This document shows positions 5,223 through 22,846 of a stretch of DNA of 24,420 nucleotides, one piece after another. This DNA is from Planctomycetota bacterium (GTDB lineage: Bacteria; Planctomycetota; UBA1135; UBA2386). The notes under the pieces were generated by a model. The model saw nothing but the letters and a program-made list of their open reading frames with translations. It was not told the origin of the DNA and searched no databases. The translations under genes were made by a program, and so were the position numbers. Position 1 is the stretch's first letter. Every line of letters begins with the position of its first letter. The stretch spans positions 1 to 24,420 of the forward strand of contig CANMWZ010000048.1 of NCBI GenBank assembly GCA_947501605.1, read 5' to 3'.

Positions 5223-5485
5223 AAGGTCCTCTGCTGGAAGGCTGCTTCGAGGCGACGGCGCAAGTCCATCGCCTGTTGAAAGCCCGAGTCGACATCGGCA
5301 ATGGCGCGTTTCAGCGAGTCGGTGTCGTCGACGGGCTCCTGTGTCTCGGTCGGTCGCGCGAGTCGTTCGAGCGAGTCCAGGAGACGGCGGAAGGCTGGTG
5401 ACGACTCGCTCGCACTGGCCGCGGGAGTGGAGCCGACGGGGGCGACAGTGGCGGAGCCGCTGAGCGGTACGAGGGGTTGGGTCAC
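5219..5485 (-). CDS. Small helical protein (88 aa), divergent FliE-like
   Basis: Starts 10 nt after the flgL stop and is coupled to the GNAT. C-terminal helix AIADVDSGFQQAMDLRRRLEAAFQQ aligns without gaps to the remembered FliE consensus. The family call is by eye. Confidence 0.6.
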   Translation of the reverse strand: MTQPLVPLSGSATVAPVGSTPAASASESSPAFRRLLDSLERLARPTETQEPVDDTDSLKRAIADVDSGFQQAMDLRRRLEAAFQQRTL

Positions 5486-5495
5486 GGCTCAGTGC

Positions 5496-6899
5496 TCAGA
5501 GGAAGTTCTGCAAGGAGGTCTGGATGACGCGCGAGCCCATTTGCAGAGCCGCTTGGTAGGAAATGTCCTGCCGCTGCAGTTCGAGGATGGCCTTGGCCAT
5601 GTCCGTGTCCTGAAGGTCGGAGAGCGACTGCTCGCGCGAGATGCGCAGGCCCGACACGCGGTTGCCGAGAACTTGCATGCTGGAGGAGCGGAAGCCGAGT
5701 TCGCTCAAGCCGTCGAGGACCGCGTCGTGGGCGCTGTCGATCTCCCCGAGCATCTCCGCCGCACGGGCGCGAACCGTGGCGTTGTCGGTGCCGGCCTCGT
5801 TCTTCAGCAGATCGCGCAGCGTGATCAGCATCGTGAAGGCGTCGAAGGTGCCTTCGTGCTTGACCGCTTCGTCGCCAGTCTTGATCAGTCCGGTCACGTC
5901 AACTTGCAGTACGGTGCCGTCGTCGCCGCTGCGCACTGCGATCGCAGTGGCGCTGAAGTCCGACACATCCGTGACCGTGGCGCCGCCGTCGGTGGTGAGA
6001 CCGGCCTTGGCCGTGAACGTGCCCGTCAGCGTCGCCGGCAAGCCTGTGACCGTGAGGTTGAGCACGCGACCATCAGCAGTCGTGAAATCCTGGTCGCTGG
6101 CGGGGACCGAGATGGCCGGGCCGCCGCCGATGCTCAACGTTGGCGGTGAGGCGGTGAAGGTGTAGCCGATGGGGCCGACGGCGTTCGACGTGCCGCTGCC
6201 CGCGAACACGCCGGATGGTGCGTCGGTGTGCAAACCGTTCCACGACACCGTCAGTGTTTGGAAGCCGATCGCCGTGTCGCCGCGACCCGTTGGCTGTGCG
6301 CCAGTGGCGCCTGTGAAAGTGACGCCGCGGCGGTCGCGATTCTGGAAGATCGCATCGCCCGGAAGATTGAGGCCAGTCGCCACGCCAGGCGCGACTTCGA
6401 TCTCGAGCCGTTCTTGGTTGCCGCGATAGTCGACGCGCGTGCCACCGGGGCCGTCGACGATCTCGAATGGCGGCGTGCCGTTCTCGGTGCCGCCGAACAG
6501 GTAGCGGTCGCCGCGACGCGAGTTGCCGATGCCGACCAGCTGCTGCAGCAACTGCTCCATCTCGTTGCCGATGCTGGAGCGATCGCCATCGCCAAACGTG
6601 CCGTTCGCCGCCTGCATCGTGAGTTCGCGCACACGCTGCATGAGGGCGGAGCCGTCCTCGAGCGAGGCGGCTCCCGTGTCGAGGCTCTCGCGCGCCAGAG
6701 CGACGTTGTCCGACATCTGCACAAGGCTCCGCAGATCCTTCTGCAGCGGCAGGATGCGCAACGTGGCGGTGGGGTCGTCGGACGGTACTTCGATGCGCCG
6801 GCCGCTCGCGACCTGCTGCTGGAGATTGGTGTACTTGCCGAGGCTGCGCTGGATGTCGCCCAGCGCACGTTGGAACAGATGGCCTTGGGTGATGCGCAT
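5496..6899 (-). CDS. flgL: Flagellar hook-associated protein 3 (467 aa)
   Basis: MRIT N-terminus after an AGAAGGA RBS. Motifs QQVASGRRIEVPSDDP, GDRYLFGGT and C-terminal LSDLQDTDMAKAI..YQAAL..IQTSLQNFL. Follows flgK. Confidence 0.95.
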   Translation of the reverse strand: MRITQGHLFQRALGDIQRSLGKYTNLQQQVASGRRIEVPSDDPTATLRILPLQKDLRSLVQMSDNVALARESLDTGAASLEDGSALMQRVRELTMQAANGTFGDGDRSSIGNEMEQLLQQLVGIGNSRRGDRYLFGGTENGTPPFEIVDGPGGTRVDYRGNQERLEIEVAPGVATGLNLPGDAIFQNRDRRGVTFTGATGAQPTGRGDTAIGFQTLTVSWNGLHTDAPSGVFAGSGTSNAVGPIGYTFTASPPTLSIGGGPAISVPASDQDFTTADGRVLNLTVTGLPATLTGTFTAKAGLTTDGGATVTDVSDFSATAIAVRSGDDGTVLQVDVTGLIKTGDEAVKHEGTFDAFTMLITLRDLLKNEAGTDNATVRARAAEMLGEIDSAHDAVLDGLSELGFRSSSMQVLGNRVSGLRISREQSLSDLQDTDMAKAILELQRQDISYQAALQMGSRVIQTSLQNFL

Positions 6900-6907
6900 G
6901 GTCCTTC

Positions 6908-9271: not shown

Positions 9272-9284
9272 GGTTCGTGTCTCC

Positions 9285-9836
9285 TCAGATGCGTCCGTCG
9301 ACGAGGCTGCCCGGGACGGATCCCGTGCGGGGGAGCGCGGCCTGCAGGCGTCGCGCATTGCGGTCGTAGCTACCGACGTTGTCGCGGGTCGTGGCCACCT
9401 GTTGGCTCACGCCGGCGACGAGTTGCTCGTTGGCGTTGTTGGTGAAGCGCAGCAAGCGCTCGCCGAGCGCTAGCTCACGACGTACTTGGGTTGCAGTCCC
9501 CGTTGCGTCGGTGGTTGCTTGCTTGAGGCGCGCGGCGAGGCTGCGCGGCAAGTGCTGCGACAGGAAGGTCGTGTTGACATGGCGAGGGCCCGCGGCCCCG
9601 GGCATGGCCGGGAGCTGCGCTGCAATGTCCGCGAGCACCTTCTGGCGGCGGTCTTCTTCCTTCTGCAGGTCTTCGCTCAAACCGGCGAGCGCAGTGGGAG
9701 CCTCGGCGAGCACGCTGGGCTTGGCGGAGATCCACTGCGTGCGTCGAGTGCGCAGCCCCTCTGCGAGCTTCTGCATGAGCCCGGTGGAAAGACGGAGCGA
9801 ACGGATCAGTGCTTCGGTGAGATCAACCAGCGACAT
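9285..9836 (-). CDS. flgN: Probable flagellar export chaperone, FlgN-like (183 aa)
   Basis: ATG 9836 follows GGAGG. Helical protein (LQKEEDRRQKVL) with a C-terminal YDRNAR motif, in the typical position between flgJ and flgK. The call rests largely on context. Confidence 0.7.
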   Translation of the reverse strand: MSLVDLTEALIRSLRLSTGLMQKLAEGLRTRRTQWISAKPSVLAEAPTALAGLSEDLQKEEDRRQKVLADIAAQLPAMPGAAGPRHVNTTFLSQHLPRSLAARLKQATTDATGTATQVRRELALGERLLRFTNNANEQLVAGVSQQVATTRDNVGSYDRNARRLQAALPRTGSVPGSLVDGRI

Positions 9837-10230
9837 CGAGGCCTCCTGCCATGCGAACCGGTAGATGCGGCGCGTTGAGCACACCGCGGTCGATTTCATC
9901 TGCGGTCTTGCCGCGAGCTTCTGTCGGCTGGCTGTTCCAGCGTTCGAAGTCGCGCATCACTGCTGCGGCGATGCCGACCTTGCCGTTCTTGCTGACCTGC
10001 TCGGCGATCTTCTCGTCGAACCAGTCGCCGTAGGTGTCGGAGCCTGGCTCGCTGCCGAACATGCCGCCGGCCTCGCTGTCGACCTTCGAGCTCTCGCGCA
10101 TCGTGCTGACGAGTTGCCGCACGAAGATCTGCTCGAACTGCATCGCGGTGTCGCGCGCCTTGGCGAGCTTCTGAGCCGGCGTGACGACTGGCGTCAGCCG
10201 GTCCATCACGTTGTTCTGGATGGGGTCCAT
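9823..10230 (-). CDS. flgJ: Rod-binding (rod cap) protein FlgJ, single domain without muramidase (135 aa)
   Basis: Motif AMQFEQIFVRQLVSTMR...GMFG....DTYGDWFDEKIAEQVS..GKVGIA. ATG overlaps the flgI stop (TGATG). Confidence 0.9.
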   Translation of the reverse strand: MDPIQNNVMDRLTPVVTPAQKLAKARDTAMQFEQIFVRQLVSTMRESSKVDSEAGGMFGSEPGSDTYGDWFDEKIAEQVSKNGKVGIAAAVMRDFERWNSQPTEARGKTADEIDRGVLNAPHLPVRMAGGLDVAG

Positions 10231-11498
10231 CAGCGGACCTCCAAGGGCGCGTGGAGATAGCCTGCCTTTTGCAGCGCGGTGAAGACATTCACCAACTGCG
10301 CCGGAGTGAGATTGAGAGCCCGCAGGTTCTGCAGCAATTCGCCGACGGTGGCGCCGCCCGCGACGGCCTTGAGCTCGCTGTTCTGCGACTCGACCTGGAT
10401 GCGCGTGCGGTTCACGCCCTGCGTCTCGCCGTTGCTGAGCGCGTTCGGTTGCGAGACCTCGGTTTCGTCGACGATCGAGATCGTCAGTTCGCCGATGCTG
10501 AAGACGCACGGAGTGATCAGCACGCCTTCACCAGCGATGACGGTGCCGCTCGACTGATCCACCAGCACCTTGGCTGGGTTGTCCACTTCGACGCGGACGT
10601 CGCGGATGCGACTCAGGATTGCCATCGCCGTGCCCTGGTTGCGCGACTTGAGCGGCAACTGGATGCGGACGAGGCCTTGGTCGACGGCGCTGACCGTGAC
10701 CTCTTCATCCATCAGAACCTTGCGGATGCCCTCGGCGATCCTCATGGCTGTGAAGTTGCTCGGGGTCGTGACCTCGATCTCCAGGTCCCCTGCTTCGGAG
10801 AAGTATGACGACGGCATGTCGCGGATGACGATGCCGCCGTCGATCAGCGTGGCGGTCGTCGCGAGGTTCTTCTGCACGCTGGCCGCACTGCCTTGCGCGG
10901 TCACGCCAGCCACTGACAGGGTCCCTTGCGCGACCACGTGTGTTTGGTTGTCGACGCCGCGCAACTCGGCGCGCAGCAGCACGCCGCCACGCAGCGAGGT
11001 CGCGTCACCGATGACTTGGCAGTCGACGTTGACGAGATTGCCCTGGCGACTGAACGGCTTCAGCGACGTGGTCAGCGAGACCAGCGCGGTGTTGCCAGCA
11101 GTGACGTCCGAGATGGTGAAGTTGAGGTTCTGATCGCGGATCATGTTCAGCAGCGCCTGCCGCGTGCCGCGATCACTCGAACCGGTGCCTTGGAGGCCAG
11201 TGACGATGCCGATGCCGACGAGCAAGTGCGGCATGCTGTTGTGCAGCCGCGTGATCTCGTGCAGGCGCACGGTCATCGGGCCTGAGGCCACTGGCACATC
11301 GGGTGTAGCTGCCGCTCGCGATTCGTAGGTCATCGGCAACGGCGAAGGCTGTGGCGCCTGCGCCGGTGCGCTCACGGGGATCGAGATCGGCGTCAGGAAC
11401 GGCGTCACGATCGGGATCGACGGCGACGGCGCCTGCGTCGGTGCGGTGACCGCGAGGACGAAGAACGCGACGGGCGAGAGCAAGGCGGTTGAGTTCAT
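10230..11498 (-). CDS. flgI: Flagellar P-ring protein
   Basis: Signal peptide plus Pro-rich linker. Motifs LVGIGIVTGLQGTG, IGDATSLRGGVLL, AKVLVDQSSGTVIAG and ALQKAGYLHAPL. Confidence 0.96.
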   Translation of the reverse strand: MNSTALLSPVAFFVLAVTAPTQAPSPSIPIVTPFLTPISIPVSAPAQAPQPSPLPMTYESRAAATPDVPVASGPMTVRLHEITRLHNSMPHLLVGIGIVTGLQGTGSSDRGTRQALLNMIRDQNLNFTISDVTAGNTALVSLTTSLKPFSRQGNLVNVDCQVIGDATSLRGGVLLRAELRGVDNQTHVVAQGTLSVAGVTAQGSAASVQKNLATTATLIDGGIVIRDMPSSYFSEAGDLEIEVTTPSNFTAMRIAEGIRKVLMDEEVTVSAVDQGLVRIQLPLKSRNQGTAMAILSRIRDVRVEVDNPAKVLVDQSSGTVIAGEGVLITPCVFSIGELTISIVDETEVSQPNALSNGETQGVNRTRIQVESQNSELKAVAGGATVGELLQNLRALNLTPAQLVNVFTALQKAGYLHAPLEVR

Positions 11499-11505
11499 GA
11501 GCAGC

Positions 11506-12138
11506 TCAGAACGGCCACGCGGCCCAGATCAGGGTGTCGAAGAGTTGCCCGACCGGGCCTTTGGTCACCTGGCGCGTGCTGGCGCCCTCGCCGGTGATTG
11601 CAATGCGGGCGTCGGCAACCTGGGAGCTGGTCACGGTGTTGAGGTTGGTGACGTCGAGGGCGCGGACGATGCCGCTGATGCGCAACGTCTTCTGCTCATC
11701 GTTGACGGTGACGCTGCGTTGACCGGCGACGATGAGGTTGCCGTTGGGCTGCACGTCGATGACCATCACGGCAATGCTGGCGCGCACGTCAGAACCGCTG
11801 TTCTGCTTCGACTCGCCGTTGAAGTCTTGCTCCTTCGAAACGGCAATGGTCGGCAGTGCGGAGGCGTTGAAGGCGTCGTTGCTCAGCGTGAAGGCAGAGA
11901 GACGTGCCGACAGCGATGTGTCGTTGGAGCGCTCGGTCTTGTCCTCGTTGCGTACGCTGTGCGTTTCTTGAATGGCGATCGTCAGCACGTCGCCCACCGA
12001 ACGGGCGCGCAGGTCAGCCGTCGCCGCGATCTTGGCACCGGCTCGCACGTATGGGTTCTGGGCCCGCACGGTGTTGCAGCAGAGGGCCAGCAGCCCAGCA
12101 GCTGCGAGCAAGAAGGGGTGAAGTGAGAGGTTGCCCAT
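11506..12138 (-). CDS. flgH: Flagellar L-ring protein
   Basis: Motifs DLRARSVGDVLTIAIQE, VIDVQPNGNLIVAG, ISGIVRALD and SSQVADARI; ends WPF. Lies between flgA and flgI. Confidence 0.95.
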   Translation of the reverse strand: MGNLSLHPFLLAAAGLLALCCNTVRAQNPYVRAGAKIAATADLRARSVGDVLTIAIQETHSVRNEDKTERSNDTSLSARLSAFTLSNDAFNASALPTIAVSKEQDFNGESKQNSGSDVRASIAVMVIDVQPNGNLIVAGQRSVTVNDEQKTLRISGIVRALDVTNLNTVTSSQVADARIAITGEGASTRQVTKGPVGQLFDTLIWAAWPF

Positions 12139-12146
12139 GGGAGGTC

Positions 12147-13130
12147 TCAGTTGCGGATCACGACGGTGCCGCTGGCCTCGGCGATGCCGGTCAGCGACGC
12201 GCGGGTGCCGGTGCTGATGACGTTGACGCGTTCGCCGCGCACGGCGTCGTTGTTGGCGATTGCCTGCGTTTCGATCTTCACGCGGCCCTTGGTGATGATG
12301 AGGGTGACGAGGTCGCCACGGCGGATCAGCGCTGGCTCGGCGACGTCGCTGAGCATCAGCAGTTGATTGGGCTGCAGGTTGCGCCGCGCGACCTTGCCGA
12401 CCACCTGTTCCATCGACGTGAGATAGAGACCGTTGGTCTGGTCGAGGCGCTCGCGCGACAGCGTGAAGTACTCCGGCCCGATCGGCATGCCCGCCGGCAC
12501 CGTGGCATTGGTCTTGATGATTTCGTGGTAGCGACGGAGCTTGAACTGGATCGGAACGGTCTTGGCGACGACCTCGTCGACGAGGATCTCGACCTCGACG
12601 ACGGCGGTGTTCGGGTTGGTGGCGCCGCCGCGAATGCGAGCGCGCATCTCCTGGCTCCTGCGTCCTGGCTGCACTTGATGCGCGCGAACGGGACTCGCCA
12701 GTTCGTACTCGACGTCGCCCCCTTCCTTCTGCAGGACGGCTTCGAGCACGGTGGTTGCGTGCTCGATGAGTTCGACTTGACTGACCGCAGCAACCAACGA
12801 CTGCACGGCGACCTCAGTTGCACCGCGAATGCGGAAGGTGCCGGCGGCGTAGCCACTGGCCACCAGGGACTGCAACAGTTCGGAGCGCGTGACCGTGCGC
12901 AGGAACCCAGGCGTCGGCGCCGCGGCGAAGCGCAACGACGCGATCGTCATGGATTCCGCATCGGTCGGTGCGAGGTCGACCAGGTCGCCAATCGTGACTT
13001 CGAGCCCGCGCACGAGAGCGTTCTCGTGCAGCGACAGTTCGTAGGTCGGTTGCGGGCGTGCCGTGGCGCCGCCGGGAGCCGGGTCCTGCGCGAGTGCGCC
13101 GAACAGTGCGATGGTGACGAATGCGAACAT
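12147..13130 (-). CDS. flgA: P-ring assembly chaperone FlgA (327 aa)
   Basis: ATG 13130 follows AAGGAG and starts a signal peptide. C-terminal SAF region VVGKVARRNLQPNQLL..PALIRRGDLVTL..GERVNV. Lies between flgG and flgH. Confidence 0.92.
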   Translation of the reverse strand: MFAFVTIALFGALAQDPAPGGATARPQPTYELSLHENALVRGLEVTIGDLVDLAPTDAESMTIASLRFAAAPTPGFLRTVTRSELLQSLVASGYAAGTFRIRGATEVAVQSLVAAVSQVELIEHATTVLEAVLQKEGGDVEYELASPVRAHQVQPGRRSQEMRARIRGGATNPNTAVVEVEILVDEVVAKTVPIQFKLRRYHEIIKTNATVPAGMPIGPEYFTLSRERLDQTNGLYLTSMEQVVGKVARRNLQPNQLLMLSDVAEPALIRRGDLVTLIITKGRVKIETQAIANNDAVRGERVNVISTGTRASLTGIAEASGTVVIRN

Positions 13131-13188
13131 GAGACTCTCCTTCTCTGCTGTGCGGACCTTCCCGAACCCTCTGCGCAAACCACGGCGA

Positions 13189-13217
13189 CGCACGCTGCGG
13201 CAAACCGCAGCGATGCG
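13189..13217 (-). other. GC-rich intergenic stem-loop between flgG and flgA
   Basis: CGCTGCGG-CAAA-CCGCAGCG (13193-13212), extendable by CGCA/TGCG across a one-base bulge. No U-tract follows. Confidence 0.6.
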
Positions 13218-13224
13218 CTCTGCA

Positions 13225-14019
13225 TCAACGGACGATGTTGGTCGCCGTCGACAGCATCTGATCGCTAGCCTGGATCGCGCGGCTGTTCACCTCGTAGGCC
13301 CGTTGCGCGACGATCAGGTTGACGAGTTCGTTGACGATCTGGACGTTGCTGCGCTCGAGAAACCGTTGGCGCAGTTGACCGAGGCCGGCGATGCCCGGCG
13401 TCGAAGTCTGCGGCGCGCCTGACGCTTCGGTCTGACGGCCCACGTTGCCACCGACCGCGAGCATGCCCGACGGATTGACGAAGCGGCTGATGGTCAGCTG
13501 ACCGACCTGCGTTGCCGCGTCCGGAGTGCTGGCAGTGGCGACCGTGACTCGTCCTGACGGATCGATGGCGATATCGAGAGTGTCGGCTGGCACGGTGATC
13601 TCGGGCAGCAGGATGTGTCCCTGGCTGGTCACGATGTTGCCGGCGGCGTTGATTTGAAACGAACCGTCGCGGGTGTAGCCAGTGCCGCCGTCGGGCAGAC
13701 GAACGGCGAAGAAGCCTTCGCCGTCGATGGCGATGTCGAGCGGGCGATCGGTCGGCTCCAGCATGCCGGGGCTGTAGACCTTGGTCGTACCGTTGAGGCG
13801 CGTGCCCGAGCCGATCTGCGTGCCGGTCGGAACCGCGAGGTCGCCGGTGCCGCGGGCGAGACCAGGCGCCTGCTGCGTGACGTAGAGAAGGTCCTCGAAC
13901 GAAGCTTGCGACTTCTTGAAGCCCGAGGTGTTCACGTTCGCGATGTTGTTCGCGATCATGTCGACCATCGTCTGCTGGGCCTTCATGCCCGTCGCGGTGG
14001 TGTAGAGGCTCTTGAGCAT
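13225..14019 (-). CDS. flgG: Flagellar distal rod protein
   Basis: MLKSLYTTATGMKAQQ..IANNIANVNTSGFKKS..FEDLLY, DIAIDGEGFF, YTRDGSF and LERSNV..VNELVNLIVAQRAYEVNS. Confidence 0.97.
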   Translation of the reverse strand: MLKSLYTTATGMKAQQTMVDMIANNIANVNTSGFKKSQASFEDLLYVTQQAPGLARGTGDLAVPTGTQIGSGTRLNGTTKVYSPGMLEPTDRPLDIAIDGEGFFAVRLPDGGTGYTRDGSFQINAAGNIVTSQGHILLPEITVPADTLDIAIDPSGRVTVATASTPDAATQVGQLTISRFVNPSGMLAVGGNVGRQTEASGAPQTSTPGIAGLGQLRQRFLERSNVQIVNELVNLIVAQRAYEVNSRAIQASDQMLSTATNIVR

Positions 14020-14023
14020 TGGA

Positions 14024-14764
14024 TTACCTGCTTAGATTCTGGACGAGGCTTTCTTGCATGCGGCCGACGCTGCCGAGTGCTTTCTGGGTCGCTGTGAAAC
14101 TGCGCTGCACGACGATCATCTGGACGAGTTCTTGGAGGGAGTCGACGTTGCTGCCTTCTTGGTAGCCCTGGCGCACGCCGTCGCTGACGACTTCGAGCTT
14201 CTGCTTGCCCGGGTCCTGGAAGTTGCCGCTGCCGACCGGGACCAGAGCGTTCGGATCGCGCACCTTGAAGACCCCGAGTGGGCCCCAGACCTGGCCCGTC
14301 GTAGGGTCGGAGATCTGGCCGCTGTTCGAGATCGAGAGCTCGGTCGGCGACTGCTCGCCGGTGCCGAGCAGGATCGGACTGCCGTTTTGGTCGAGGTAGC
14401 GGAAGCCTTCGTTGTTCACGAGGCCGCCTTGCGAATCGAGTTGCATCTGGCCGTCGCGGGTCAAGAACACGCGACCCTTGCCATCCTGCACGCGGAGCCA
14501 GGAGCCCTCGCTCAGCGCGAGCTCCAGCTGACTGCCGGTCTCGCGCAGGGAGCCTTGCTTCCAGTCGGAGACCTCGCCGTAGCGCACCGTCGGCATCCGC
14601 TCGCCCAGAACGCGTTCGAACGAAGAGGCGGACTCGAGCGCCACGGGCGTGCGGCGCTTGTAGCTCGCGGTTTCGAGGTTGGCGAGATTGTTGGAGATGG
14701 CCGCCTGGGACTCGGCCAAGAAGTGCATGCCCTTTACGAGCGCGGTTTCGGCGTAGCCTGACAT
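14024..14764 (-). CDS. flgF: Flagellar proximal rod protein (start at ATG 14764 or GTG 14767)
   Basis: ISNNLAN, QGSLRETG, LTRDG and QGYQEGSNVD motifs; about 246 aa; immediately upstream of flgG. Confidence 0.88.
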   Translation of the reverse strand: MSGYAETALVKGMHFLAESQAAISNNLANLETASYKRRTPVALESASSFERVLGERMPTVRYGEVSDWKQGSLRETGSQLELALSEGSWLRVQDGKGRVFLTRDGQMQLDSQGGLVNNEGFRYLDQNGSPILLGTGEQSPTELSISNSGQISDPTTGQVWGPLGVFKVRDPNALVPVGSGNFQDPGKQKLEVVSDGVRQGYQEGSNVDSLQELVQMIVVQRSFTATQKALGSVGRMQESLVQNLSR

Positions 14765-14766
14765 CA

Positions 14767-16740
14767 CTACCTCACGATGTTCATGAGCTCGGCGAGGATC
14801 TCGTCGGCTGTGGTGATGACGCGCGAGCTGGCTTGGAAGCCACGCTGCGCCTCGATGAGGTTGACGAACTCGCGGGCGATGTCGACGTTGCTGTTCTCCA
14901 GGGAACCTGCGCGAACGGTGCCAGCGCCTGCGGTGTTGGCCGTAGTGAAGATGGGGGAGTCCGAGTTCGGCGACTCGACGAACATGGTGTCGCCGACCCG
15001 CAGTAGCCCGGCCTCGTTGGCGAACAGCGTCACGCGCAGCTGCTCGAGCGTCTTGCTCTGACCGTTGGTGTAGAACGCGACCAGTGAGCCGTTGGTGTCG
15101 AAGGCCGCGTTGAGCAGCGTGCCGGACTCGAAACCGTCCTGATCCGTCGCCGCGATCGTGCTCTGGTTGCCGAGCATCGCGATGCCGTCGAACTGGCCCG
15201 AGGTGCCGAGATCGACTGCGACTGTCTGGGCCGCGCTGATCCCCGTGAAGCTGAACTGCAGCGTGTTGCTGCCGCCGCCGATCACGTTGAAGGAGCCGTT
15301 GTCGTTGAAGCGGATCTGGTTGATCGAGCCCTGCGTGATCGTTCCTTCGCTGGGGTCCATGGTCGCGGCCATGCCCCAGACAGTCGGGTCGGTGTCGCTG
15401 CGCGTGTAGGTCATGGTGACCGTGTGGCCGAGACCCTGCGCGTCGATGATCTCGATCGACGTGATCGCGGTGTCGGCGCCGGTGCCCTGTTGCGACACGG
15501 TGAAGTTCGGCCAGTTGTTCTTGCCGGTGTTGTTGATCGAGTCACCGATGGAGAGCGACAGATCGGCGTCGCCCTTGCTGTTCGCCGTCAGGCGGATGTG
15601 ACCGTCGGCGGTCAACGAGGCCGTGGACTGCGTGTTGTCGACGGTGCTGTTGATGAAGGTGACGAGGTCCTGCAGCGTCGTGCCGTCGGTGCCCGGTCCC
15701 GTGCCGTAGATGAACGTGTCCGAGTACGACGTGCGATCCGGGTTGGTGCCGCTGATCACGATCTGATCGCCGGTCTGGTAGGCGCTGCGGCGCGCCGTCA
15801 GCGCACCGAGGTTGGTCGTACCGATCGCGGTGGATTGCGAACCAGAGACGAGGGTTGCGTCGAGGCCGAGCGCGCCGAGCAGGCCCGAGGCACCAGGGCC
15901 GTTGTCGAACTTCAGTGTCGCGTTGCTGCCGAGTTGGATCGTGTCGAAGTCGATCGTGCCGTTGACGTCGTCGGCAGTGACAGACAGGCCGGCCACCGTG
16001 AAGGCGGCTGCCACCGTCGAAGCGTTGACCGGTCCCGCACCAAACGTAGTGGATGGGAAGGTGACCGACTGTTGCGCGCCGCCATTGACGGAGACGAGGA
16101 CGCTCTTGCCGGCGAAGGCTGACAAGTTGAATTGCGTGCCGGTGCCGGCGGTGCCCTGAGCCGTCTTGGCAGCAGCGAGGCCGGCCTGGAGCACGGCGCT
16201 CGACTGCACAATCTCCTCGAAGGGGCCACCGACTCGGGCCGGCAGGTTGCCTTGGAAGCTCACGCTCGTGGTCGCGCGGGCGGGCAGCGTGTCGGCCACC
16301 GGGACGTTGATGGTGCCGCCATCAGCCGCCATGACTCGCAGGCCGGTGCGGACGTCGACCAGGGCGCGTTCGTTGTCGATGCTGAAGGTGCCGACGCGCG
16401 TGTAGAAGCGCTGCAAGCCGTCGGTCAGGGTGAAGAAGCCGCGACCTTGCAAGGCGACATCGAGGGGACGACCAGTGTCTTGGAACGTGCCCTGACTCGT
16501 GTCGATGTCGACCGTCGTCATGATCGCGCCGTTGCCAACCTGCACTGGGTTGAGACCGCCGAGATTGCCGTTCGGGCCAGAGCCCGCGCGCAGCGTGGTG
16601 CTCAGCAGGTCGCTGAACGTCGGGCGGCCGCCGCGAAAGCCAGCCGTGCTGACGTTCGCGAGGTTGTTGCCGATGACGTCGATGTAGCTCTGGTGCAGGC
16701 GAAGGCCCGACAACCCGGTGAACAGTGCGGTACTGACCAT
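14767..16740 (-). CDS. flgE: Flagellar hook protein (657 aa, large inserted surface domains)
   Basis: ALFTGLSGL..IGNNLANVSTAGF, DVALQGRGFF, YTRVGTF and GSLENSNVDIAREFVNLIEAQRGFQASSRVITTADE; follows flgD. Confidence 0.96.
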   Translation of the reverse strand: MVSTALFTGLSGLRLHQSYIDVIGNNLANVSTAGFRGGRPTFSDLLSTTLRAGSGPNGNLGGLNPVQVGNGAIMTTVDIDTSQGTFQDTGRPLDVALQGRGFFTLTDGLQRFYTRVGTFSIDNERALVDVRTGLRVMAADGGTINVPVADTLPARATTSVSFQGNLPARVGGPFEEIVQSSAVLQAGLAAAKTAQGTAGTGTQFNLSAFAGKSVLVSVNGGAQQSVTFPSTTFGAGPVNASTVAAAFTVAGLSVTADDVNGTIDFDTIQLGSNATLKFDNGPGASGLLGALGLDATLVSGSQSTAIGTTNLGALTARRSAYQTGDQIVISGTNPDRTSYSDTFIYGTGPGTDGTTLQDLVTFINSTVDNTQSTASLTADGHIRLTANSKGDADLSLSIGDSINNTGKNNWPNFTVSQQGTGADTAITSIEIIDAQGLGHTVTMTYTRSDTDPTVWGMAATMDPSEGTITQGSINQIRFNDNGSFNVIGGGSNTLQFSFTGISAAQTVAVDLGTSGQFDGIAMLGNQSTIAATDQDGFESGTLLNAAFDTNGSLVAFYTNGQSKTLEQLRVTLFANEAGLLRVGDTMFVESPNSDSPIFTTANTAGAGTVRAGSLENSNVDIAREFVNLIEAQRGFQASSRVITTADEILAELMNIVR

Positions 16741-16764
16741 GGTGATTCCTCGTTGGCTGCGGGA

Positions 16765-17208
16765 TCAGGCTTCGTTGACGTTGGCGATGCCGTGCACATC
16801 GCGCAGGCCGATCTCGGCGCCGCCGGCTAGTCGCAGCCGCACGTCACCGGACTCGGCGACGAAGACCGACTCGACGGTGGCGGAGGTGTCGACGCCGTTC
16901 GCGTTCTTGTAGGAGACCTCACGCCCGAGCAGCGAGCTGCCCTGGCTCAAGCCCTGACTGCGCGCCAGCAGACCTTGGTAGTCGAGCAGCGCCAGCATGT
17001 TCGTGTTGAGGTCCTGCTGCTGCTCCATCGACGAGTAGCTCGCCATCTGGTTCATGAAGCTCTCGTTGTCCACCGGCGATAGCGGCGACTGGTTCTGGAG
17101 CTGCGTGGTCAGAAGGCGCAAGAACTGGTTCTCACCAAAGCTGCCGCCCTGGTTGGACAGCACCGTCGAGAGATTGCCCTGGCTGGAGATTCCGCTGGTC
17201 GTCGTCAT
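16765..17208 (-). CDS. flgD: Flagellar hook capping protein (147 aa)
   Basis: ATG 17208 follows GAGGA. Motifs FLRLLTTQLQNQSPLSPVDN..FMNQMASYSSMEQ and SLLGREV. Confidence 0.95.
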   Translation of the reverse strand: MTTTSGISSQGNLSTVLSNQGGSFGENQFLRLLTTQLQNQSPLSPVDNESFMNQMASYSSMEQQQDLNTNMLALLDYQGLLARSQGLSQGSSLLGREVSYKNANGVDTSATVESVFVAESGDVRLRLAGGAEIGLRDVHGIANVNEA

Positions 17209-17219
17209 GTTGTCGTTCC

Positions 17220-18248
17220 TCAAACCCAGAAATCGAGTCCGTTGGCCGTGTACCAGCCTGTTGGTGCGCTTGCGGCGAGCTGCAGCGCATCGTCTGCATC
17301 GCTGCCGTTTGCGTCGGGATGCTTGGCGTCGCCGAACGCATCGGCGGAGCGTTGATCGCCGCCTTGGCGCGTGTGCACCTCGGCGTGCGCGACTGTGAGC
17401 CCGCTGTCTTGCAGCTCCTTCTTGAGCTGATCGAGGCCGCCTTGCAGCAGATCGCGAAGGTCATCGCGTTCGGTGCCGATCGACAACCGCAGCGAGTTGC
17501 TGCTGTCGACGATCATGTGCAGATCGAGTTCGCCCAACTCCGGTGGGTCGAGGCGGACACGCATCTCGCTGCCCTCTTTGCCGAGCTTGAACAGGATCTG
17601 CTTGAACACCGAATCGCGGGCCTGCTCGTTCATGGCGACGCCGGCCGCATTCAGCGTGCGGTAGCCGGTGGCCTTGGCCTCGACGGCAACGGTGCGGAAC
17701 TCGGCCGACAGTTGCGGGCCGGTCAAGCGGTCGACGGTGGCGCGCGATGTCGGTGCCGCGGCCTGCAGTGGGGCGATGCCGGAGCTCAGTGGCGCTTTGC
17801 CAGGAAGCAGTACGACGGACGACGTCGAAGCTGCGACCACGGGGATCGCGAGCGGCGCGCGCGACGGCAAAGGATCGAGAGAGTCGCCGGCGTCTTCGCC
17901 TGCATCGTCTTGCCGCACCGGCGACTCTCTCGAGGGTAGTTCTTGGGAGGTAGCGACGGTCGTGGCCTGGTCGTTCGCCGCGGCTTCCGTGGCAGCGTCG
18001 GCGCCGGCTTCGATCGCAGCATCCTCGGCCGCATCGCTGTCCCGGTCGCGGGCTTCCCCTGCGGCGGTCGCGAGCGACGCGTCCGTAGGAGCGGTCTCGG
18101 TCGGCTCTTGGCGATCACGCGCTGGCGCCGGTTCGGCGCGGCGCGAGGCCTGCTCGAGTCGATCGGCGAACGTGCCACTGGCCGCGTTGCTGCCGCTGGC
18201 GGCCACTGGCACGCTCAACGGATCGAACCCGAGTTTGCTGAACTGCAT
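17220..18248 (-). CDS. fliK: Flagellar hook-length control protein (about 342 aa)
   Basis: Low-complexity Ala/Asp/Thr N-terminal region and a C-terminal T3S4 domain (MRVRLDPPELGELDL, LDQLKKELQDSGL). Upstream of flgD, with a GGAGG/AAGGGG RBS. Confidence 0.92.
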   Translation of the reverse strand: MQFSKLGFDPLSVPVAASGSNAASGTFADRLEQASRRAEPAPARDRQEPTETAPTDASLATAAGEARDRDSDAAEDAAIEAGADAATEAAANDQATTVATSQELPSRESPVRQDDAGEDAGDSLDPLPSRAPLAIPVVAASTSSVVLLPGKAPLSSGIAPLQAAAPTSRATVDRLTGPQLSAEFRTVAVEAKATGYRTLNAAGVAMNEQARDSVFKQILFKLGKEGSEMRVRLDPPELGELDLHMIVDSSNSLRLSIGTERDDLRDLLQGGLDQLKKELQDSGLTVAHAEVHTRQGGDQRSADAFGDAKHPDANGSDADDALQLAASAPTGWYTANGLDFWV

Positions 18249-18283
18249 CACGACCAAGATCCCCTTCCTCCGTCCTGGTCCAT

Positions 18284-18300
18284 TGCACGGCGCGTGCCAA
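18284..18300 (-). promoter_or_regulatory. Sigma-54 (RpoN) -24/-12 promoter of the fliK operon
   Basis: Minus strand reads TTGGCACGcgccGTGCA, with exact GG-N10-GC spacing and a near-consensus match to TGGCACG-N4-TTGC, about 35 nt before the fliK start. Confidence 0.8.
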
Positions 18301-18373
18301 GTGGGCGCAGAACACGGAAGTGCCCATGCCATGGGCCCATTGGGTCAGGTGCGGCCACGGGGCAGGGAGTGGT

Positions 18374-18584: not shown

Positions 18585-18896
18585 ATGAACATCCGGAACG
18601 TGAGCAACAGTGGTGGCGTCGATCGCGGTGGAGACCGCCCGATCCGCGTTGACGGCAAGCGCGAGAGCAGTGCTGCAGCCAGCTCGACCGGGGACAAGGC
18701 CGCGATCAGCAGCGATGGCCGCGATGCCAAGGCTGCGTTCGAAGCCAACGTCGATGTCGTGCGCGCCGAAGGCAGCGATCGCGCCGCGATCGTCAGCCGC
18801 GCGATGGAGAAGCTGAAGAGCGGGGAGCTCGACACCGAGGCCGTCTACCGCGACGCCGCATCGCGCCTGCTCGCGACCGACTTCCGCACTGCCTGA
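18585..18896 (+). CDS. flgM: Probable anti-sigma-28 factor FlgM (103 aa)
   Basis: ATG 18585 follows GGAGG and lies at the 3' end of the 317-aa track ORF. GDKAAISS matches DxVxIS, and DRAAIVSRAMEKLKSGELDTEAVYRDAASRLL matches the FlgM C-terminal pattern. Upstream sigma-28-like promoter. Confidence 0.75.
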   Translation: MNIRNVSNSGGVDRGGDRPIRVDGKRESSAAASSTGDKAAISSDGRDAKAAFEANVDVVRAEGSDRAAIVSRAMEKLKSGELDTEAVYRDAASRLLATDFRTA

Positions 18897-18935: not shown

Positions 18936-20132
18936 TCACATGAAGTTGCGCGTGTGCAAGGAACTCAGCTGCGCCGCTTCGCGGTCGTCGAAGCCGAGTC
19001 GCCGCAAGCGTGCCCGCCGACCGGAGTCCATCTGGGTTTGCAGATCGGCAACCGCCGCGTGACCGCGCGCAATGGCCGCCGGCGTCAACGCACCAGCCGC
19101 CAGGATCACCAACGCGTCGAACACTTCGGCGTTGAGCCCGGCCGTGTGTCGCAGCATCTCATGGCGGCGTTCGATGGCGACCCGCAGGCGCGGTCGCAGC
19201 GTCGAGTCGTGCGCGGCATGACGCAAGAGGTGCGACATGCCGAAGGCGACATGTCGCGCCTCGTCGACTGCCGCCAGCCGCATCACTTCGGCGGTGCAGC
19301 GATCGGGCGCGTGGGTCTGAAGGAAGCCGAGCAGATTGAGGAAGGAGCCTTCGCCAAGCACGCTGAGCAGGAAGCTGGCGAGGGCGAAGTCCGGCTCGTC
19401 GATGAGGGTCTGCAGCGATGCCTGACCACCGCCGGTCGAGAGGCCGAGTTGGTCGCGTGCGAGCAGGGCTCGCCGGGTGAACACCTCGATGTGACGAGCT
19501 TCGTCCGCAGCCTGGATCGCAAGTAGTTGCACGACTTCGCGGAAGTGCGGGTGCACCTTGGCGCAGAAGTGCGCCGGGACGATCAGCGCCGCGGTCTCGT
19601 TCTCGATCAGGTAGGTCAGTACTTGCACCAGCGCGTCTTCGACGAATGCAGGGTGCGTGCGCGGGGCGTCCCACGGGATGGCGCTCGCCGGATCCCACTG
19701 CGCGGCGGCGGCGGCGCGGTAGAGCTGGCCGGCGTTGTCGCTCCAGATCTCGTCCTTGTCGGCGAGCGCGAAGGCGAACGCAGGCGCTCCGGCCTCGACC
19801 TGAGCCCCGCGCGCGGCGAGGCCCCACGTGGCATTGGCGTGATCCATCGCGCCGTCGGGCGCTGCACTGCCAGCGCGTTGCGCCCCGACCCAGCGCGCGT
19901 TGGTCGCGGTGCCGCGCACCAACGTGCCCCTGCTGTGTTCGTCGTCGGCGCTCTCGAACCCGTGACCCTCGGCCCTCGCAAAGGCGCGCAAGTGCAGATC
20001 GAGCGATGGCGCCACCCCATGGACCGTCAATCGATCGCCGGGTGCCAGTGCCAGCAGCGCGTGCCGCAGCAACACCGTCGCGCCGAAGTCGAGGCCGAGG
20101 TCCGCGAGGTCGATGGCGGCGTTGCTCATCAT
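18936..20132 (-). CDS. TusA/SirA-like domain fused to a ferritin-like diiron-carboxylate domain (398 aa)
   Basis: ATGA overlap with the upstream gene. N-terminal IDLADLG..LLRHALLALAPGDRLTV..PSLDLHLRAFARAEGH is TusA-like. LYRAAAAAQWDP..IPW precedes the ligand set IENE / DEARH / GEG / DEARH. Confidence 0.85.
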   Translation of the reverse strand: MMSNAAIDLADLGLDFGATVLLRHALLALAPGDRLTVHGVAPSLDLHLRAFARAEGHGFESADDEHSRGTLVRGTATNARWVGAQRAGSAAPDGAMDHANATWGLAARGAQVEAGAPAFAFALADKDEIWSDNAGQLYRAAAAAQWDPASAIPWDAPRTHPAFVEDALVQVLTYLIENETAALIVPAHFCAKVHPHFREVVQLLAIQAADEARHIEVFTRRALLARDQLGLSTGGGQASLQTLIDEPDFALASFLLSVLGEGSFLNLLGFLQTHAPDRCTAEVMRLAAVDEARHVAFGMSHLLRHAAHDSTLRPRLRVAIERRHEMLRHTAGLNAEVFDALVILAAGALTPAAIARGHAAVADLQTQMDSGRRARLRRLGFDDREAAQLSSLHTRNFM

Positions 20133-20974
20133 GGTTGCATCGACTGCACGAAGCGATCGATCCAGCGGAAGCGATCGCAACTCCGCGCCAGCGTGGCATA
20201 GCCATTGGTGCGCCCGGGCCGCCATTGCTTCAGCCCTTCGAGGTCGAGCAACGGCCGCGCGACCGGATCGTCGTAGCGCATCGACAAGAGCAGGTCGCAG
20301 AAGCGGGCAACGAGGCTCTCGGGCGCTCCGTCGAGGACGCTGACGTTGCAGTGGTCGAAGAGACCAGTCTGCGACAGCACGCGCGTTTGTGCGCGTGGCA
20401 GCGTGCCTTCCTGAGTGAACAGCAGGTGGTTGCTGTCGATCATGCAGGCGGCGTCGACCTCGCCCGTCATCAGCGCCTTCGCGGCGTCGCGCTCGCCGCC
20501 GATGTGGTCGCCGTGCTTGCCAACCAGTACGTCGAAGCGCCGCACGCGGAAGTCGCGGTCGGCCAGCAAACCCTGTTGCGCCAAGTGTTCGAGCGGGATC
20601 ATCGTCGCCTGCGGCGAGTCCATTGCGCCCACACCGAGGGTCGTGCCGCGCAGGTCTGCGACCGTCTGCGCCTTCGAGTCGGCGCGAACAACGAGGACCG
20701 AACTGAGGTCCATGTCGGTGTCGCGCATGGCAACCGCCCGAGCTGTTCGCCCGCGCGCTTTGGCGATCCGATCGGTCTGCAGCCACGCGAGCGGTGAGTT
20801 CCAGGCAACGTGGAAGGCGCCATCGAAGTGCTGCTCGACCTGCCGTTCGTAGTTGCTGTAGAGCACGTAGTCGAAGGCGAGGCCGCGGGCCGCAAACCAC
20901 TTTTGAAAACCATCCCAGATGGTCACGACCTTGGCGTCGTAGGCAACCGCAGCGAGGATCAGGGTGTCGGTCAT
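20129..20974 (-). CDS. PhnD/SsuA-like type II substrate-binding-fold protein without signal peptide (281 aa)
   Basis: Motifs YSNYERQVE, VAWNSPLAW, SVLVVRADS..TVADLRG..LGVGAMDS and ALMTGEVDAA. The N-terminus MTDTLILAAVAY enters the first beta strand directly. Confidence 0.85.
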   Translation of the reverse strand: MTDTLILAAVAYDAKVVTIWDGFQKWFAARGLAFDYVLYSNYERQVEQHFDGAFHVAWNSPLAWLQTDRIAKARGRTARAVAMRDTDMDLSSVLVVRADSKAQTVADLRGTTLGVGAMDSPQATMIPLEHLAQQGLLADRDFRVRRFDVLVGKHGDHIGGERDAAKALMTGEVDAACMIDSNHLLFTQEGTLPRAQTRVLSQTGLFDHCNVSVLDGAPESLVARFCDLLLSMRYDDPVARPLLDLEGLKQWRPGRTNGYATLARSCDRFRWIDRFVQSMQP

Positions 20975-20999
20975 GGTGGTTCTGCTCGGTGGCGGCGAC

Positions 21000-22127
21000 T
21001 CAGCCAAACAACGGCATACCGCAGATCGCCTTGCCGATGAAGTCGTAGAGCTGGTCGCTGGTCGGTGCCATCACCAGCGATGCCCGCGTGTCGCGGAAGA
21101 GCCGCTCGACGCCAACGTCCTTGCGGAATGCCATCCCGCCGCAGACGCGCATCGCGAGATCCGCTACCTGCGCCGCAGTGTCGGCGGCGGCGGCCTTGAC
21201 CTCGAGCACGCGCAGGCCGGCATCGGCGCGCCCTTCTTCGAGCGCGGTGAAGGTGTCGTTCCACAAGCCCTTCGCCATGTCGACCTGGATGCGCATCTTG
21301 GCGACGTAGGCGCGGATCGTGGGCAGATCGGCGAGCGCGTTCTGCGTCGCGAGATGGGCGTACTTCTGGCCCGAAGCATGCGCTGCGGTCTTCTGCACCA
21401 ACGCCTCGGCGAGCCCGAGTGCGCCGCTCGCGATCAGGCACGAGAACGTGGGCAGCACGGTGCCCATCATGATGCCGAAGCCGGCGCCGTCGTCGCCGAG
21501 GCGATTCTTGTTGCTGATCTCGACGCCGCTCGCCGTGACCGGCGCCGAGTCGTTGCCGCGCAAGCCGAGGCCGTCGAACGGTCGCGCCACGGTGAGCCCT
21601 TTCTGCTTGTTGGGCACGAGCCACAGCGTGCTGGCTTCGTTGCCGGCAGTTGGCTTGCTCGACCACACGAACGCAGTGGCGTGGTTGGCCGACGTGATCC
21701 AGCTCTTCTCCGCATCGAGCACGACGCGGTCGCCCTTCTTGGTCGCCGTGCTGACGGGGGCCCAGAAGTGCGAACGCGAACCCGCTTCGCTGAACGCGAG
21801 CGTCGACAGGTGGCGTCCGGCGGCGATGTCGCGTCGGGTGGCAAGGTCGCCGTGCGCCTCGATCACCGTTGTGCCGCTGTAGTGCATGGTCAGCACCATC
21901 GCCGAGCTGCCGCATTCGCGAGCGATGCGTTCGATCACGTGCGCCGCTGCGCGCAGTGGCGCACCGTGGCCGCCGACATCGGGCTTGCTCAGCAGCGCGA
22001 GCAGGCCGTGTTGGCGCGCCGCCTCGACGGTTGCCGTGGGAAACGACGCGTTGGCGTCAACTGCACCGGCGTGCTCGCGGGCAACGTCTGCGACTGCTTC
22101 GGCGGCCGCATGGAAATCGTAGGTCAT
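21000..22127 (-). CDS. Acyl-CoA dehydrogenase-fold flavoprotein (375 aa), non-canonical
   Basis: Motifs VDANASFP, CGSSAMVLTMH, LAFSEAGS, AEKSWITS, GLGLRGNDS, GDDGAGF, AMRVCGG and VERLFRD. ATG at 22127. Confidence 0.9.
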   Translation of the reverse strand: MTYDFHAAAEAVADVAREHAGAVDANASFPTATVEAARQHGLLALLSKPDVGGHGAPLRAAAHVIERIARECGSSAMVLTMHYSGTTVIEAHGDLATRRDIAAGRHLSTLAFSEAGSRSHFWAPVSTATKKGDRVVLDAEKSWITSANHATAFVWSSKPTAGNEASTLWLVPNKQKGLTVARPFDGLGLRGNDSAPVTASGVEISNKNRLGDDGAGFGIMMGTVLPTFSCLIASGALGLAEALVQKTAAHASGQKYAHLATQNALADLPTIRAYVAKMRIQVDMAKGLWNDTFTALEEGRADAGLRVLEVKAAAADTAAQVADLAMRVCGGMAFRKDVGVERLFRDTRASLVMAPTSDQLYDFIGKAICGMPLFG

Positions 22128-22366
22128 GAGGATCTCGCGAGAATGGCCGCCTGCCATTGCCGCGGATGCATCAACCGCAGCTTGGGTCGGCGTCGTGCGA
22201 TGGCCCGGACACGCCGGACCTTGGCACGGTTCAGAGGTAGTGAGTGGTCGGATGCACGTGCCCCACGGTAGCGAGAAGCTCCGGCGGTCGGAAGCAAGGC
22301 GTCGTGAAGTAGCCGATGGCGACGGTGACGGTTGTCGCGACGGCATTCGTAACGGACCATGCGCGC

Positions 22367-22846
22367 ATGGACATGTCCTCTGGTTCTCGCGCCGTCGCAG
22401 CGAAGGGTCTGCCGCTCGGTGCCGTTTTGGGCATCCTGGTCGGTTGCACTTCCTGGGTCTTCGGCCTGCTGCTGCTCTGTATCGCCGAAGGGCGCGCCGA
22501 CATGATCTGGCCTGTCGTCGTGCCCGTGCTGTGCGGCTCGTTCGGAGTTGCGACCTCGGTCCTATTGGTGCTAACGCTGGTCCATCGGCTCACGCCGGCA
22601 CGACGTGACGCAGTGCGCGGCCCGGTCATGTTCGGCAGCATGTTCGTCGCCATGGGCAGTCTGCTGCTGCTGGCCGATGGCTTCGTTACGCCGCTCTTGG
22701 CGAGCGAGCCCAAGCTCGGAGACGTCGTACGCGCGAGTGGCGGCGTTCTGGGCATGCCGACCGAGTTCGCGTGCGCACTGCTCGTCGCCGGGTGCGCACT
22801 CCTGTTCGGGGTGATGCGAAAGCTGACGAAGCTCGACGCGGCGTAG
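22367..22846 (+). CDS. Hypothetical integral membrane protein (about four TM helices; start uncertain among 22316, 22367 and 22373)
   Basis: Four long hydrophobic segments. Fills the gap between two minus-strand operons and its stop converges on the lipoprotein gene. Confidence 0.65.
   Translation: MDMSSGSRAVAAKGLPLGAVLGILVGCTSWVFGLLLLCIAEGRADMIWPVVVPVLCGSFGVATSVLLVLTLVHRLTPARRDAVRGPVMFGSMFVAMGSLLLLADGFVTPLLASEPKLGDVVRASGGVLGMPTEFACALLVAGCALLFGVMRKLTKLDAA

Follow-up and report, generated by a model that had tools for sequence, protein, structure and literature searches.

The closest described relatives of the genes analyzed here form the Rv1679 (FadE16), Rv1680, and Rv1681 (MoeX) cassette of actinomycetes, catalogued under the family models NF049984, NF049985, and NF049973. 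It encodes an acyl-CoA dehydrogenase (ACAD)-fold protein, a leaderless periplasmic-binding-protein (PBP)-fold protein, and a radical S-adenosylmethionine (radical-SAM) enzyme that begins with a TusA-like domain and ends in Cys-Ala. In the open literature (subscription journals lay outside our scope) the names Rv1678-Rv1681 occur in proteomics, biomarker, and variant papers only, and we found no characterization. Rv1680 has been annotated from structure prediction as a putative phosphonate transporter component (PMC8562490, partial text). Here we examine a trio of genes, P0001, P0002, and P0003, on a 24,420-nucleotide stretch of DNA from a Planctomycetota bacterium (assembly GCA_947501605.1, contig CANMWZ010000048.1), called the window below; it is the whole of contig C48 of a 4.65-Mb genome that is 91% complete (G000). 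The trio has the same ACAD to leaderless PBP gene order as the actinomycete sister cassette, with 35-47% identity, whereas its third gene encodes a TusA-like/diiron protein in place of the radical-SAM enzyme. The cassette is real, conserved, and uncharacterized; it represents a diiron version of the Rv1679-Rv1681 type already catalogued, and it is confined almost entirely to selenium-using bacteria.

How bacteria acquire scarce selenium and route it to SelD is the question on which the trio would bear. Several other systems, namely, YedE/YedF (SirA-like), DUF3343, LysR_Se, senABC, and the SAO system, were likewise found through the neighborhoods of sel genes, and YedF contains a SirA/TusA-like domain, as does P0003 (PMC5322559, partial text). 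The terms "acyl-CoA" and "ferritin" are absent from the accessible main text of PMC5322559, PMC9312934, and bioRxiv 2022.07.06.499078, as are "dehydrogenase" and "ferritin" from that of the sen paper (bioRxiv 2022.04.13.486033). According to a 2022 review, no high-affinity selenium transport system had been identified so far (PMC9312934, partial text). Our search of the open literature returned no paper on the trio or on its selenium link, which agrees with an initial annotation of the stretch, made from the sequence by itself, that knew of no characterized pathway with these three genes. That annotation missed the relation of the first two genes to the catalogued, uncharacterized Rv1679/FadE16 and Rv1680 families, as well as the genomic tie to selenium utilization.

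Conservation of the cassette

With each species represented by one genome, the search found at least 536 relatives; the best 80 loci and their genomes, which include many incomplete metagenome-assembled genomes, were examined. They span Actinomycetota, Pseudomonadota, Myxococcota, Acidobacteriota, Planctomycetota, Chloroflexota, and others. The trio is co-conserved: the order ACAD-PBP-diiron is found in 71 of 74 assessable loci, with 6 further loci ending too early to judge. The three remaining loci (L055, L058, and L062) and two found later (L127 and L132) have the PBP and diiron genes without the ACAD gene; when these five genomes were searched, three proved to contain no close ACAD, and the other two gave only weaker matches, away from the locus. 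In L058, a GrdG-like gene lies upstream of the pair, and selD, selA, and the selenocysteine tRNA gene (tRNA-Sec) lie downstream; the PBP gene of L055 is frameshifted. The PBP and diiron genes are fused in frame in L064 (2749-4816) and L073 (9146-11236), giving proteins of 677 and 700 aa. Three longer fused forms of trio proteins were set aside as apparent chimeras or fusions within the cassette; they contain no new partner.

Neighboring genes were surveyed as 1251 open reading frames (ORFs) from a crude caller, which were clustered, and the counts are approximate except for genes queried by tblastn; the family scan took 67 of 126 picked flanking ORFs (at most 64 flanks, three sister ORFs, and one other). 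Among the clustered neighbors of the examined loci, no permease, electron transfer flavoprotein, CoA ligase, ferredoxin, flavin reductase, beta-oxidation gene, or exporter recurs beside the trio. The commonest cluster is a generic short-chain dehydrogenase (13 loci), followed by selB, selD, selA, and formate dehydrogenase (fdh) genes. Gene order and neighbors both support the earlier proposal of a dedicated, self-contained oxidative module, which would make or degrade one small molecule, as opposed to fatty-acid oxidation plus phosphonate uptake; homologues of the trio genes do not usually sit with ABC permeases or beta-oxidation genes. Three sel-linked loci (L046, L057, and L069) have a transglutaminase-like gene close to the trio.

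The radical-SAM third gene was seen in sister loci only, and NF049973 scores above its cut-off in both sister loci tested. The TusA-like domains of the two third genes are homologous, and the PBPs of both cassettes have His-Cys and KHGD motifs in common. One sister locus (L123) has a downstream membrane protein without a family match.

Association with selenium genes

Genes for SelA, SelB, SelD, SelU, or tRNA-Sec lie in the flanks of 14 of the 80 loci, or 15 when a cut selD in L045 is included, where a generous estimate of the chance expectation is at most 1.2 loci. The trio sits between selA and selB in L021 and L035, and in L051 with one extra gene after selA; these insertions, in two Variovorax loci and one Rubrivivax locus, end 11-28 nt before selB where measured. 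It follows selA-selB-selC in L056 and L069 (Ideonella and Thiothrix), directly precedes selD in L045 and L046, and follows selA-selC-selD in L012 and L044 (Streptomyces and Parafrankia). Six of the 15 sel-linked loci also contain fdh genes. A quick tree built from 82 proteins requires 11 changes of the sel-adjacency label, at least 7 of them forced by well-supported branches; the label shows mild clustering (a count as low came up in 7 of 500 shuffles).

All 80 carrier genomes carry selenium genes, with SelD in 77 and SelA in 73; the sole carrier without both (G010) has SelB. Three carriers (G052, G037, and G039) are without SelA, SelB, and tRNA-Sec and contain SelD and SelU, so that the common factor is SelD or selenium supply, not selenocysteine (Sec) decoding; a further carrier (G026) has SelD and tRNA-Sec. 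SelD is the only selenium gene in none of the 80, and two near-full SelD copies occur in just one (G028). A single SelD copy that is never the sole selenium gene is as expected for an accessory module.

Three lineages served as controls. Among 301 Streptomyces genomes, the diiron gene occurs in 14 (one partial only) and SelD in 61; SelD is present in 13 of the 14 carriers vs 48 of the 287 others (Fisher p 4e-9, or 8e-8 without two discovery genomes, though carriers include kin and are not independent, so that all p-values given here overstate). In 8 of the 13 carriers with both, the trio and SelD are at most 15 kb apart. The exception, G185, is without SelD, SelB, and tRNA-Sec, and its copy (L093, G185:C1:9204000-9223999, 9535-11936) is decayed: a transposase-like ORF cuts the ACAD gene and all three genes are frameshifted. 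This decayed trio adjoins the hopanoid C-3 methylase gene hpnR. Among 301 genomes of the window's own phylum, 13 of 14 carriers have SelD, compared with a baseline of 214/301, and the exception has SelB; in the order of G006 (201 genomes, three unpublished ones counting in the baseline only), SelD is found in 11 of 11 carriers against 142/201. The trio is thus carried by 13/61, 13/214, and 11/142 of the SelD-positive genomes in these three samples. As would be seen for a SelD-dependent accessory set, the cassette occurs in sel-bearing genomes and is linked to sel genes, with two of the three lineage controls not significant. Most of the listed SelD copies among the 214 positives of the window's phylum carry an in-frame TGA (Sec-type SelD).

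Sister cassettes behave differently. Their carriers were three genomes in the G006-order sample, which have a more distant PBP, and four from a 61-genome genus sample; SelD was found in 1 of these 7 vs 22 of 56 others of the genus. The tie to SelD is therefore a property of the diiron version.

Several more specific links were tried and rejected. Selenoneine can be dismissed because SenB occurs in only 4 of the 80 carriers, and a selenium-cofactor trait because YqeB occurs in 0 of 5 genomes tested. A formate-dehydrogenase-specific role does not fit G000, whose 91% complete sequence gave no match of the FdhA/FdhD/FdhE type at E 1e-15, though fdh genes lie near some loci; nor does G000 have a SelU match. 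In the loci examined, the trio proteins are not selenoproteins themselves: a scan of 103 loci turned up a single internal stop, caused by a frameshift in L038, a Sec form of the PBP residue Cys209 was not found (0 of 39 metagenome pattern matches were homologous, in a narrow search with an exact pattern), and the stops that follow the P0003 tail are mixed (TGA 60, TAG 36, TAA 9; n = 105), which speaks against a C-terminal Sec. One carrier contains a SenB (TIGR04348) match over the cut-off with one in-frame TGA (G027:C133:7304-8233), possibly a selenoprotein SenB or a broken gene.

Features of the three proteins

P0002 matches Pfam PF12974, and its best family model is NF049985 (Rv1680) at 211 bits, below the curated cut-off of 400; all 80 aligned family members match this model (best E 9e-102). 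Its predicted structure (pLDDT 97.4) is most similar to PhnD1 (Z 23.5), PtxB (23.4), ArrX (23.1), and AioX (20.6), and the comparison with 5lq5 (Z 23.5, rmsd 3.8, 257 aligned) points to a PBP-II fold of the phosphite/phosphonate clade. The phosphite binders PtxB and PhnD1 and the arsenic-oxyanion binders AioX and ArrX are thus closest by fold and profile. Unlike these, P0002 has neither signal peptide nor permease. We judge it to be leaderless from the length of its N-terminus, too short for a signal peptide, rather than from a predictor; 86 of the 91 homologues with the first core motif have 5-14 residues ahead of it.

The ligand site was mapped at the level of sequence, by profile alignment to Trichodesmium PtxB, and the roles and numbering of the PtxB residues follow PMC5700983 (partial text), which matches the alignment numbering. 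Y42, S120, and H154 of P0002 align with the PtxB oxygen ligands Y55, S130, and H160, whereas T131, S132, and Y100 are replaced and the S-T-S motif becomes S-[P/T/A]-Q, so that three of six oxygen contacts are kept. C209 aligns with PtxB Tyr208, the cap over the ligand's non-oxygen substituent. The pair H208-C209 is invariant, C209 being present in 94 of 94 homologues and in three sister-cassette PBPs; P0002 therefore departs from the aromatic or acidic cap and the Y-Y-STS-H oxyanion site of PhnD/PtxB.

P0003 itself has no Pfam match, and in an NCBIfam scan nothing but R2-like oxidase models rises above noise. Its family is large (5518 matches among 8000 candidates scored and, in a separate search, 279 clusters at 50% identity with E up to 1e-30), and 52 of 77 members match the AurF Pfam model. 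Judged from its sequence and predicted model (pLDDT 94.9), the C-terminal part is a ferritin-like dimetal-carboxylate four-helix bundle with E...ExxH...E...ExxH ligands, predicted as E179 (or E177), E211, H214, E261, E291, and H294; this set is complete in 97 of 97 homologues. The best folds are 6d9f (Z 23.0, rmsd 3.0, 257 aligned), R2lox (21.7), and 5ux2 (21.6), with aldehyde-deformylating-oxygenase-like structures among the best. P0003 has the fold and the four-Glu/two-His set in common with VlmB-like 6d9f, R2lox, class Ic R2, aldehyde-deformylating oxygenase, MiaE-like proteins, and AurF, at 14-23% identity, and differs from these oxidases in its TusA-like N-terminus, its invariant C-terminal tail, and a Phe (Phe218) at the R2 radical-Tyr position. 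The third His of AurF type is presumably missing as well, going by where we would expect it. The tail, LHT(R/P/K)NFM, is the exact C-terminus in all 105 loci (of 113) where the motif was found. Ribonucleotide reductase R2 proteins have tails with a docking role, and by analogy the P0003 tail may be a docking tail.

The N-terminal domain matches the TusA Pfam model (PF01206) weakly in 44 of 77 family members (best E 3.6e-6), though not in the window copy, and has no CPxP motif in the family alignment. Homology to the N-terminus of the sister radical-SAM enzyme was detected by profile comparison alone (hhalign probability 88.5, E 2.8e-6), pairwise BLAST of the two domains giving no match. A description of this domain as lacking Cys is right for the window copy (Ala52) but not for the family, where the Cys of a W-C motif (position 52) is present in 78 of 97 homologues. 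Both the W-C motif and the tail are retained in distant full-length homologues (P0152 and ESM Atlas rows), which include clusters commonest in Campylobacterota. ESM Atlas matches carry generic names only, and a plasmid collection gave no match to P0003.

P0001 matches four ACAD Pfam domains, its scores for the N, M, and C domains exceeding the cut-off, and its best family model is NF049984 (Rv1679/FadE16) at 382 bits, below the curated cut-off of 600. In an alignment to solved ACADs, Ala354 takes the place of the catalytic Glu of the MCAD/SCAD type (MCAD E376), the ACAD motif YEGT aligning with MAPT, and Glu is likewise missing at the helix-G position of the IVD/LCAD type (Phe228 region). The flavin-site residues K141, T145, and G330-G331 are invariant in the family alignment, which also has family-specific residues (C72, M77, M81, H82, and M353-x-P355). 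With MAPT in place of YEGT, P0001 as read from its sequence has no base for acyl-CoA dehydrogenation and retains the flavin site. In this it resembles the ACAD-fold non-dehydrogenases DszC, MsuC, SfnB, and 3-sulfinopropionyl-CoA desulfinase, whose models match it weakly, all far below cut-off; no flavin reductase recurs near trio loci. Met353 stands at what we take to be the place of the DszC catalytic His. Several ACAD-fold non-dehydrogenases use small organosulfur compounds, and methyl-sulfur compounds are the substrates of ACAD-fold group D monooxygenases (PMC13352529, partial text).

Proposed function and alternatives

The trio's function very probably involves selenium. The explanation that we prefer, to which we give a probability of roughly 0.4, is that the trio is an O2-dependent selenium-supply (salvage) module, which would convert a selenium compound into a form usable by SelD. 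P0002 would bind a small oxyanion-type selenium compound, e.g., methaneseleninate or selenite, in the cytoplasm through its PtxB-like oxygen contacts, and Cys209, placed over the Se atom, would capture it as a Cys-S-Se adduct. The dimetal center of P0003 would activate O2 and then oxidize or demethylate the compound or cleave its C-Se bond. P0001, lacking the acyl-CoA base, would be the flavin redox partner that supplies electrons, a role that would account for its pairing with a radical-SAM enzyme in the sister cassette and for its occasional loss, and the TusA-like domain would dock partners or relay Se to SelD. This mechanism, which we infer by analogy, is modeled on the salvage of methyl-sulfur compounds, in which ACAD-fold monooxygenases take part (PMC13352529). 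More broadly, the balance of the evidence tips slightly toward an undescribed branch of selenium metabolism, either O2-dependent salvage that delivers selenium to SelD or a new trait that consumes selenophosphate. In this branch, an oxyanion-binding transporter-type protein would have become a cytoplasmic, Cys-based Se-capturing enzyme working with a diiron oxidase, and the radical-SAM sister would do equivalent chemistry without SelD.

A number of observations weigh against the salvage explanation. Selenite reduction needs no oxygenase. With three of six PtxB contacts kept, the ligand of P0002 may not be a simple oxyanion, and the sister PBPs keep His-Cys and other PBP residues without SelD, from which it follows that the Cys is not selenium-specific; the TusA-like Cys is absent from the window P0003. 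Genomically, 65 of the 80 loci have no sel gene in the flanks covered, and none of the 21 proteins of the window's own clade is near one: in G000, selA and a UGA-containing selD lie side by side on C4, selB on C2, and tRNA-Sec on C1, all unlinked to the trio. Two lineage controls are not significant (own phylum, 12/13 vs 201/287, p 0.12; G006 order with two discovery genomes removed, 9/9 vs 131/187, p 0.06), because SelD is common there (∼70%). Apart from the transposase-like insertion, the breaks in the G185 copy could stem from errors in sequencing. Substrate and activity of the trio proteins are predictions from sequence and models, and co-occurrence cannot separate supply from consumption or detoxification.

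Consumption of selenophosphate is an improbable alternative. The trio would then be a new SelD-dependent trait, in which P0002 binds selenophosphate with its Se toward Cys209 and the diiron and flavin enzymes make a new selenium-containing metabolite or cofactor or attach Se to a protein. The dependence on SelD is one-way, in Sec and non-Sec genomes alike, and Cys209 caps the PtxB R1 position, the expected place of the Se atom of selenophosphate. In the sister cassette, a radical-SAM enzyme replaces the third protein, and this enzyme class is suited to heteroatom insertion chemistry. Yet no carrier of the 80 has SelD without another known trait, SenB is as rare as stated above, and the cassette has no selD of its own, unlike senABC (bioRxiv 2022.04.13.486033, partial text). 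We prefer supply because no carrier has SelD by itself and because the cassette is without its own selD.

Equally improbable in our estimate is that the trio acts on sulfur or another substrate common with the sister cassette, its association with selenium being explained by lifestyle and by hitch-hiking on formate-dehydrogenase/Sec islands. The sister, which keeps the core residues without a SelD link, the SelD baseline of two host lineages, the fdh genes in 6 of 15 sel-linked loci, and the group D monooxygenases of methyl-sulfur compounds (PMC13352529) all speak for it. Hitch-hiking is harder to reconcile with insertion between selA and selB, so close to selB, with the variety of sel layouts and lineages, and with the Streptomyces contrast together with the decayed copy in selenium-negative G185; the missing FdhA/FdhD/FdhE-type match in G000 counts against it too.

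Somewhat less probable still is detoxification or recycling of selenium species in aerobic selenium users (selenide, methylselenol, or seleninic acids released as selenoproteins or tRNAs turn over), where the trio would protect rather than supply. Its restriction to selenium users of any trait, its patchiness among SelD-positive genomes, and the O2-using diiron fold of P0003 would suit such a role, but detoxification would also benefit SelD-less genomes, and an intact trio occurs in 0 of 240 SelD-negative Streptomyces; moreover, no exporter recurs beside the trio. That the three are ordinary, unrelated genes (a beta-oxidation acyl-CoA dehydrogenase, a periplasmic phosphonate-binding protein, and a ferritin-like protein) is very improbable, as the Pfam labels and the annotation of Rv1680 (PMC8562490) that suggest it are outweighed by the missing catalytic Glu of P0001, PBP N-termini with no room for a signal peptide, the lack of a recurrent permease, and the strict order and fusions.

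The salvage proposal is directly testable, since the trio is a soluble, well-folded three-gene module tied to sel operons in culturable, harmless hosts (Variovorax and Streptomyces). Cys209 of the PBP and the ligand class named above make up its active-site prediction. If true, the proposal would give a first handle on the uncharacterized cassette of the Rv1679-Rv1681 type and would show that a diiron oxidase and a radical-SAM enzyme can replace each other on one scaffold.

The locus and its surroundings

The trio ORFs are in the order P0001-P0002-P0003, and each gene is single-copy in G000 (Table 1). Sequence and ORF coordinates bear out the initial description of co-oriented genes joined by a short gap and an ATGA overlap, and the window ORFs confirm that no permease, ATPase, or CoA-ligase gene adjoins them. 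The convergent and divergent bounding ORFs exist as described, but the name flgM given to the former has no Pfam, NCBIfam, or PDB support; the identity is plausible, its basis being position in a flagellar cluster.

Table 1. Positions of the trio, its parts and neighbors (window coordinates), and of the sister loci (own coordinates)
Feature	Position	Strand	Size	Basis or content
P0001, ACAD-fold flavoprotein	21000..22127	(-)	375 aa	Pfam, NF049984, alignment to solved ACADs, conservation
P0002, leaderless PBP-II-fold protein	20129..20974	(-)	281 aa	NF049985, PtxB profile alignment, predicted fold
P0003, TusA-like/diiron protein, entire	18936..20132	(-)	398 aa	
P0003 N-terminal TusA-like domain	19890..20132	(-)	about residues 1-80	family Pfam matches, profile comparison with sister
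P0003 ferritin-like dimetal-carboxylate domain	18936..19889	(-)		ligand conservation, predicted fold
Gap, ACAD gene to PBP gene	20975..20999	(-)	25 nt	sequence
ATGA overlap, P0002 stop/P0003 start	20129-20132	(-)		sequence
Convergent neighbor ORF, initially labeled flgM	18585-18896		103 aa	no family support
Divergent neighbor ORF	22316-22846		176 aa	no Pfam/NCBIfam match
Sister locus L123	6604-10123			ACAD, PBP, TusA-like/radical-SAM
Sister locus L124	6700-9697			ACAD, PBP, TusA-like/radical-SAM
Sister locus L125	6999-9951			ACAD, PBP, TusA-like/radical-SAM

Window positions 5219-18332, beside the trio, hold what we take from the sequence to be the flagellar cluster, with hook, ring, rod, and hook-associated genes, and ORFs at 328-2100, past this cluster and ∼17 kb from the trio, are presumably etfA/etfB; neither assignment involved a family search. 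No sigma-70 promoter-like site was found, and terminator-like sites are at chance level. The diiron gene occurs in 0 of 5 sampled genomes of the same family, so the trio is patchy in the window's lineage. Pieces of the stretch match contigs from four public RNA runs of one study, mostly at ≥99% and with no indel listed. These contigs cover the whole 14-kb region, from which transcription of the trio is not separable, and in three of the four runs they are deepest over the 103-aa ORF, a depth not convertible to an expression level.

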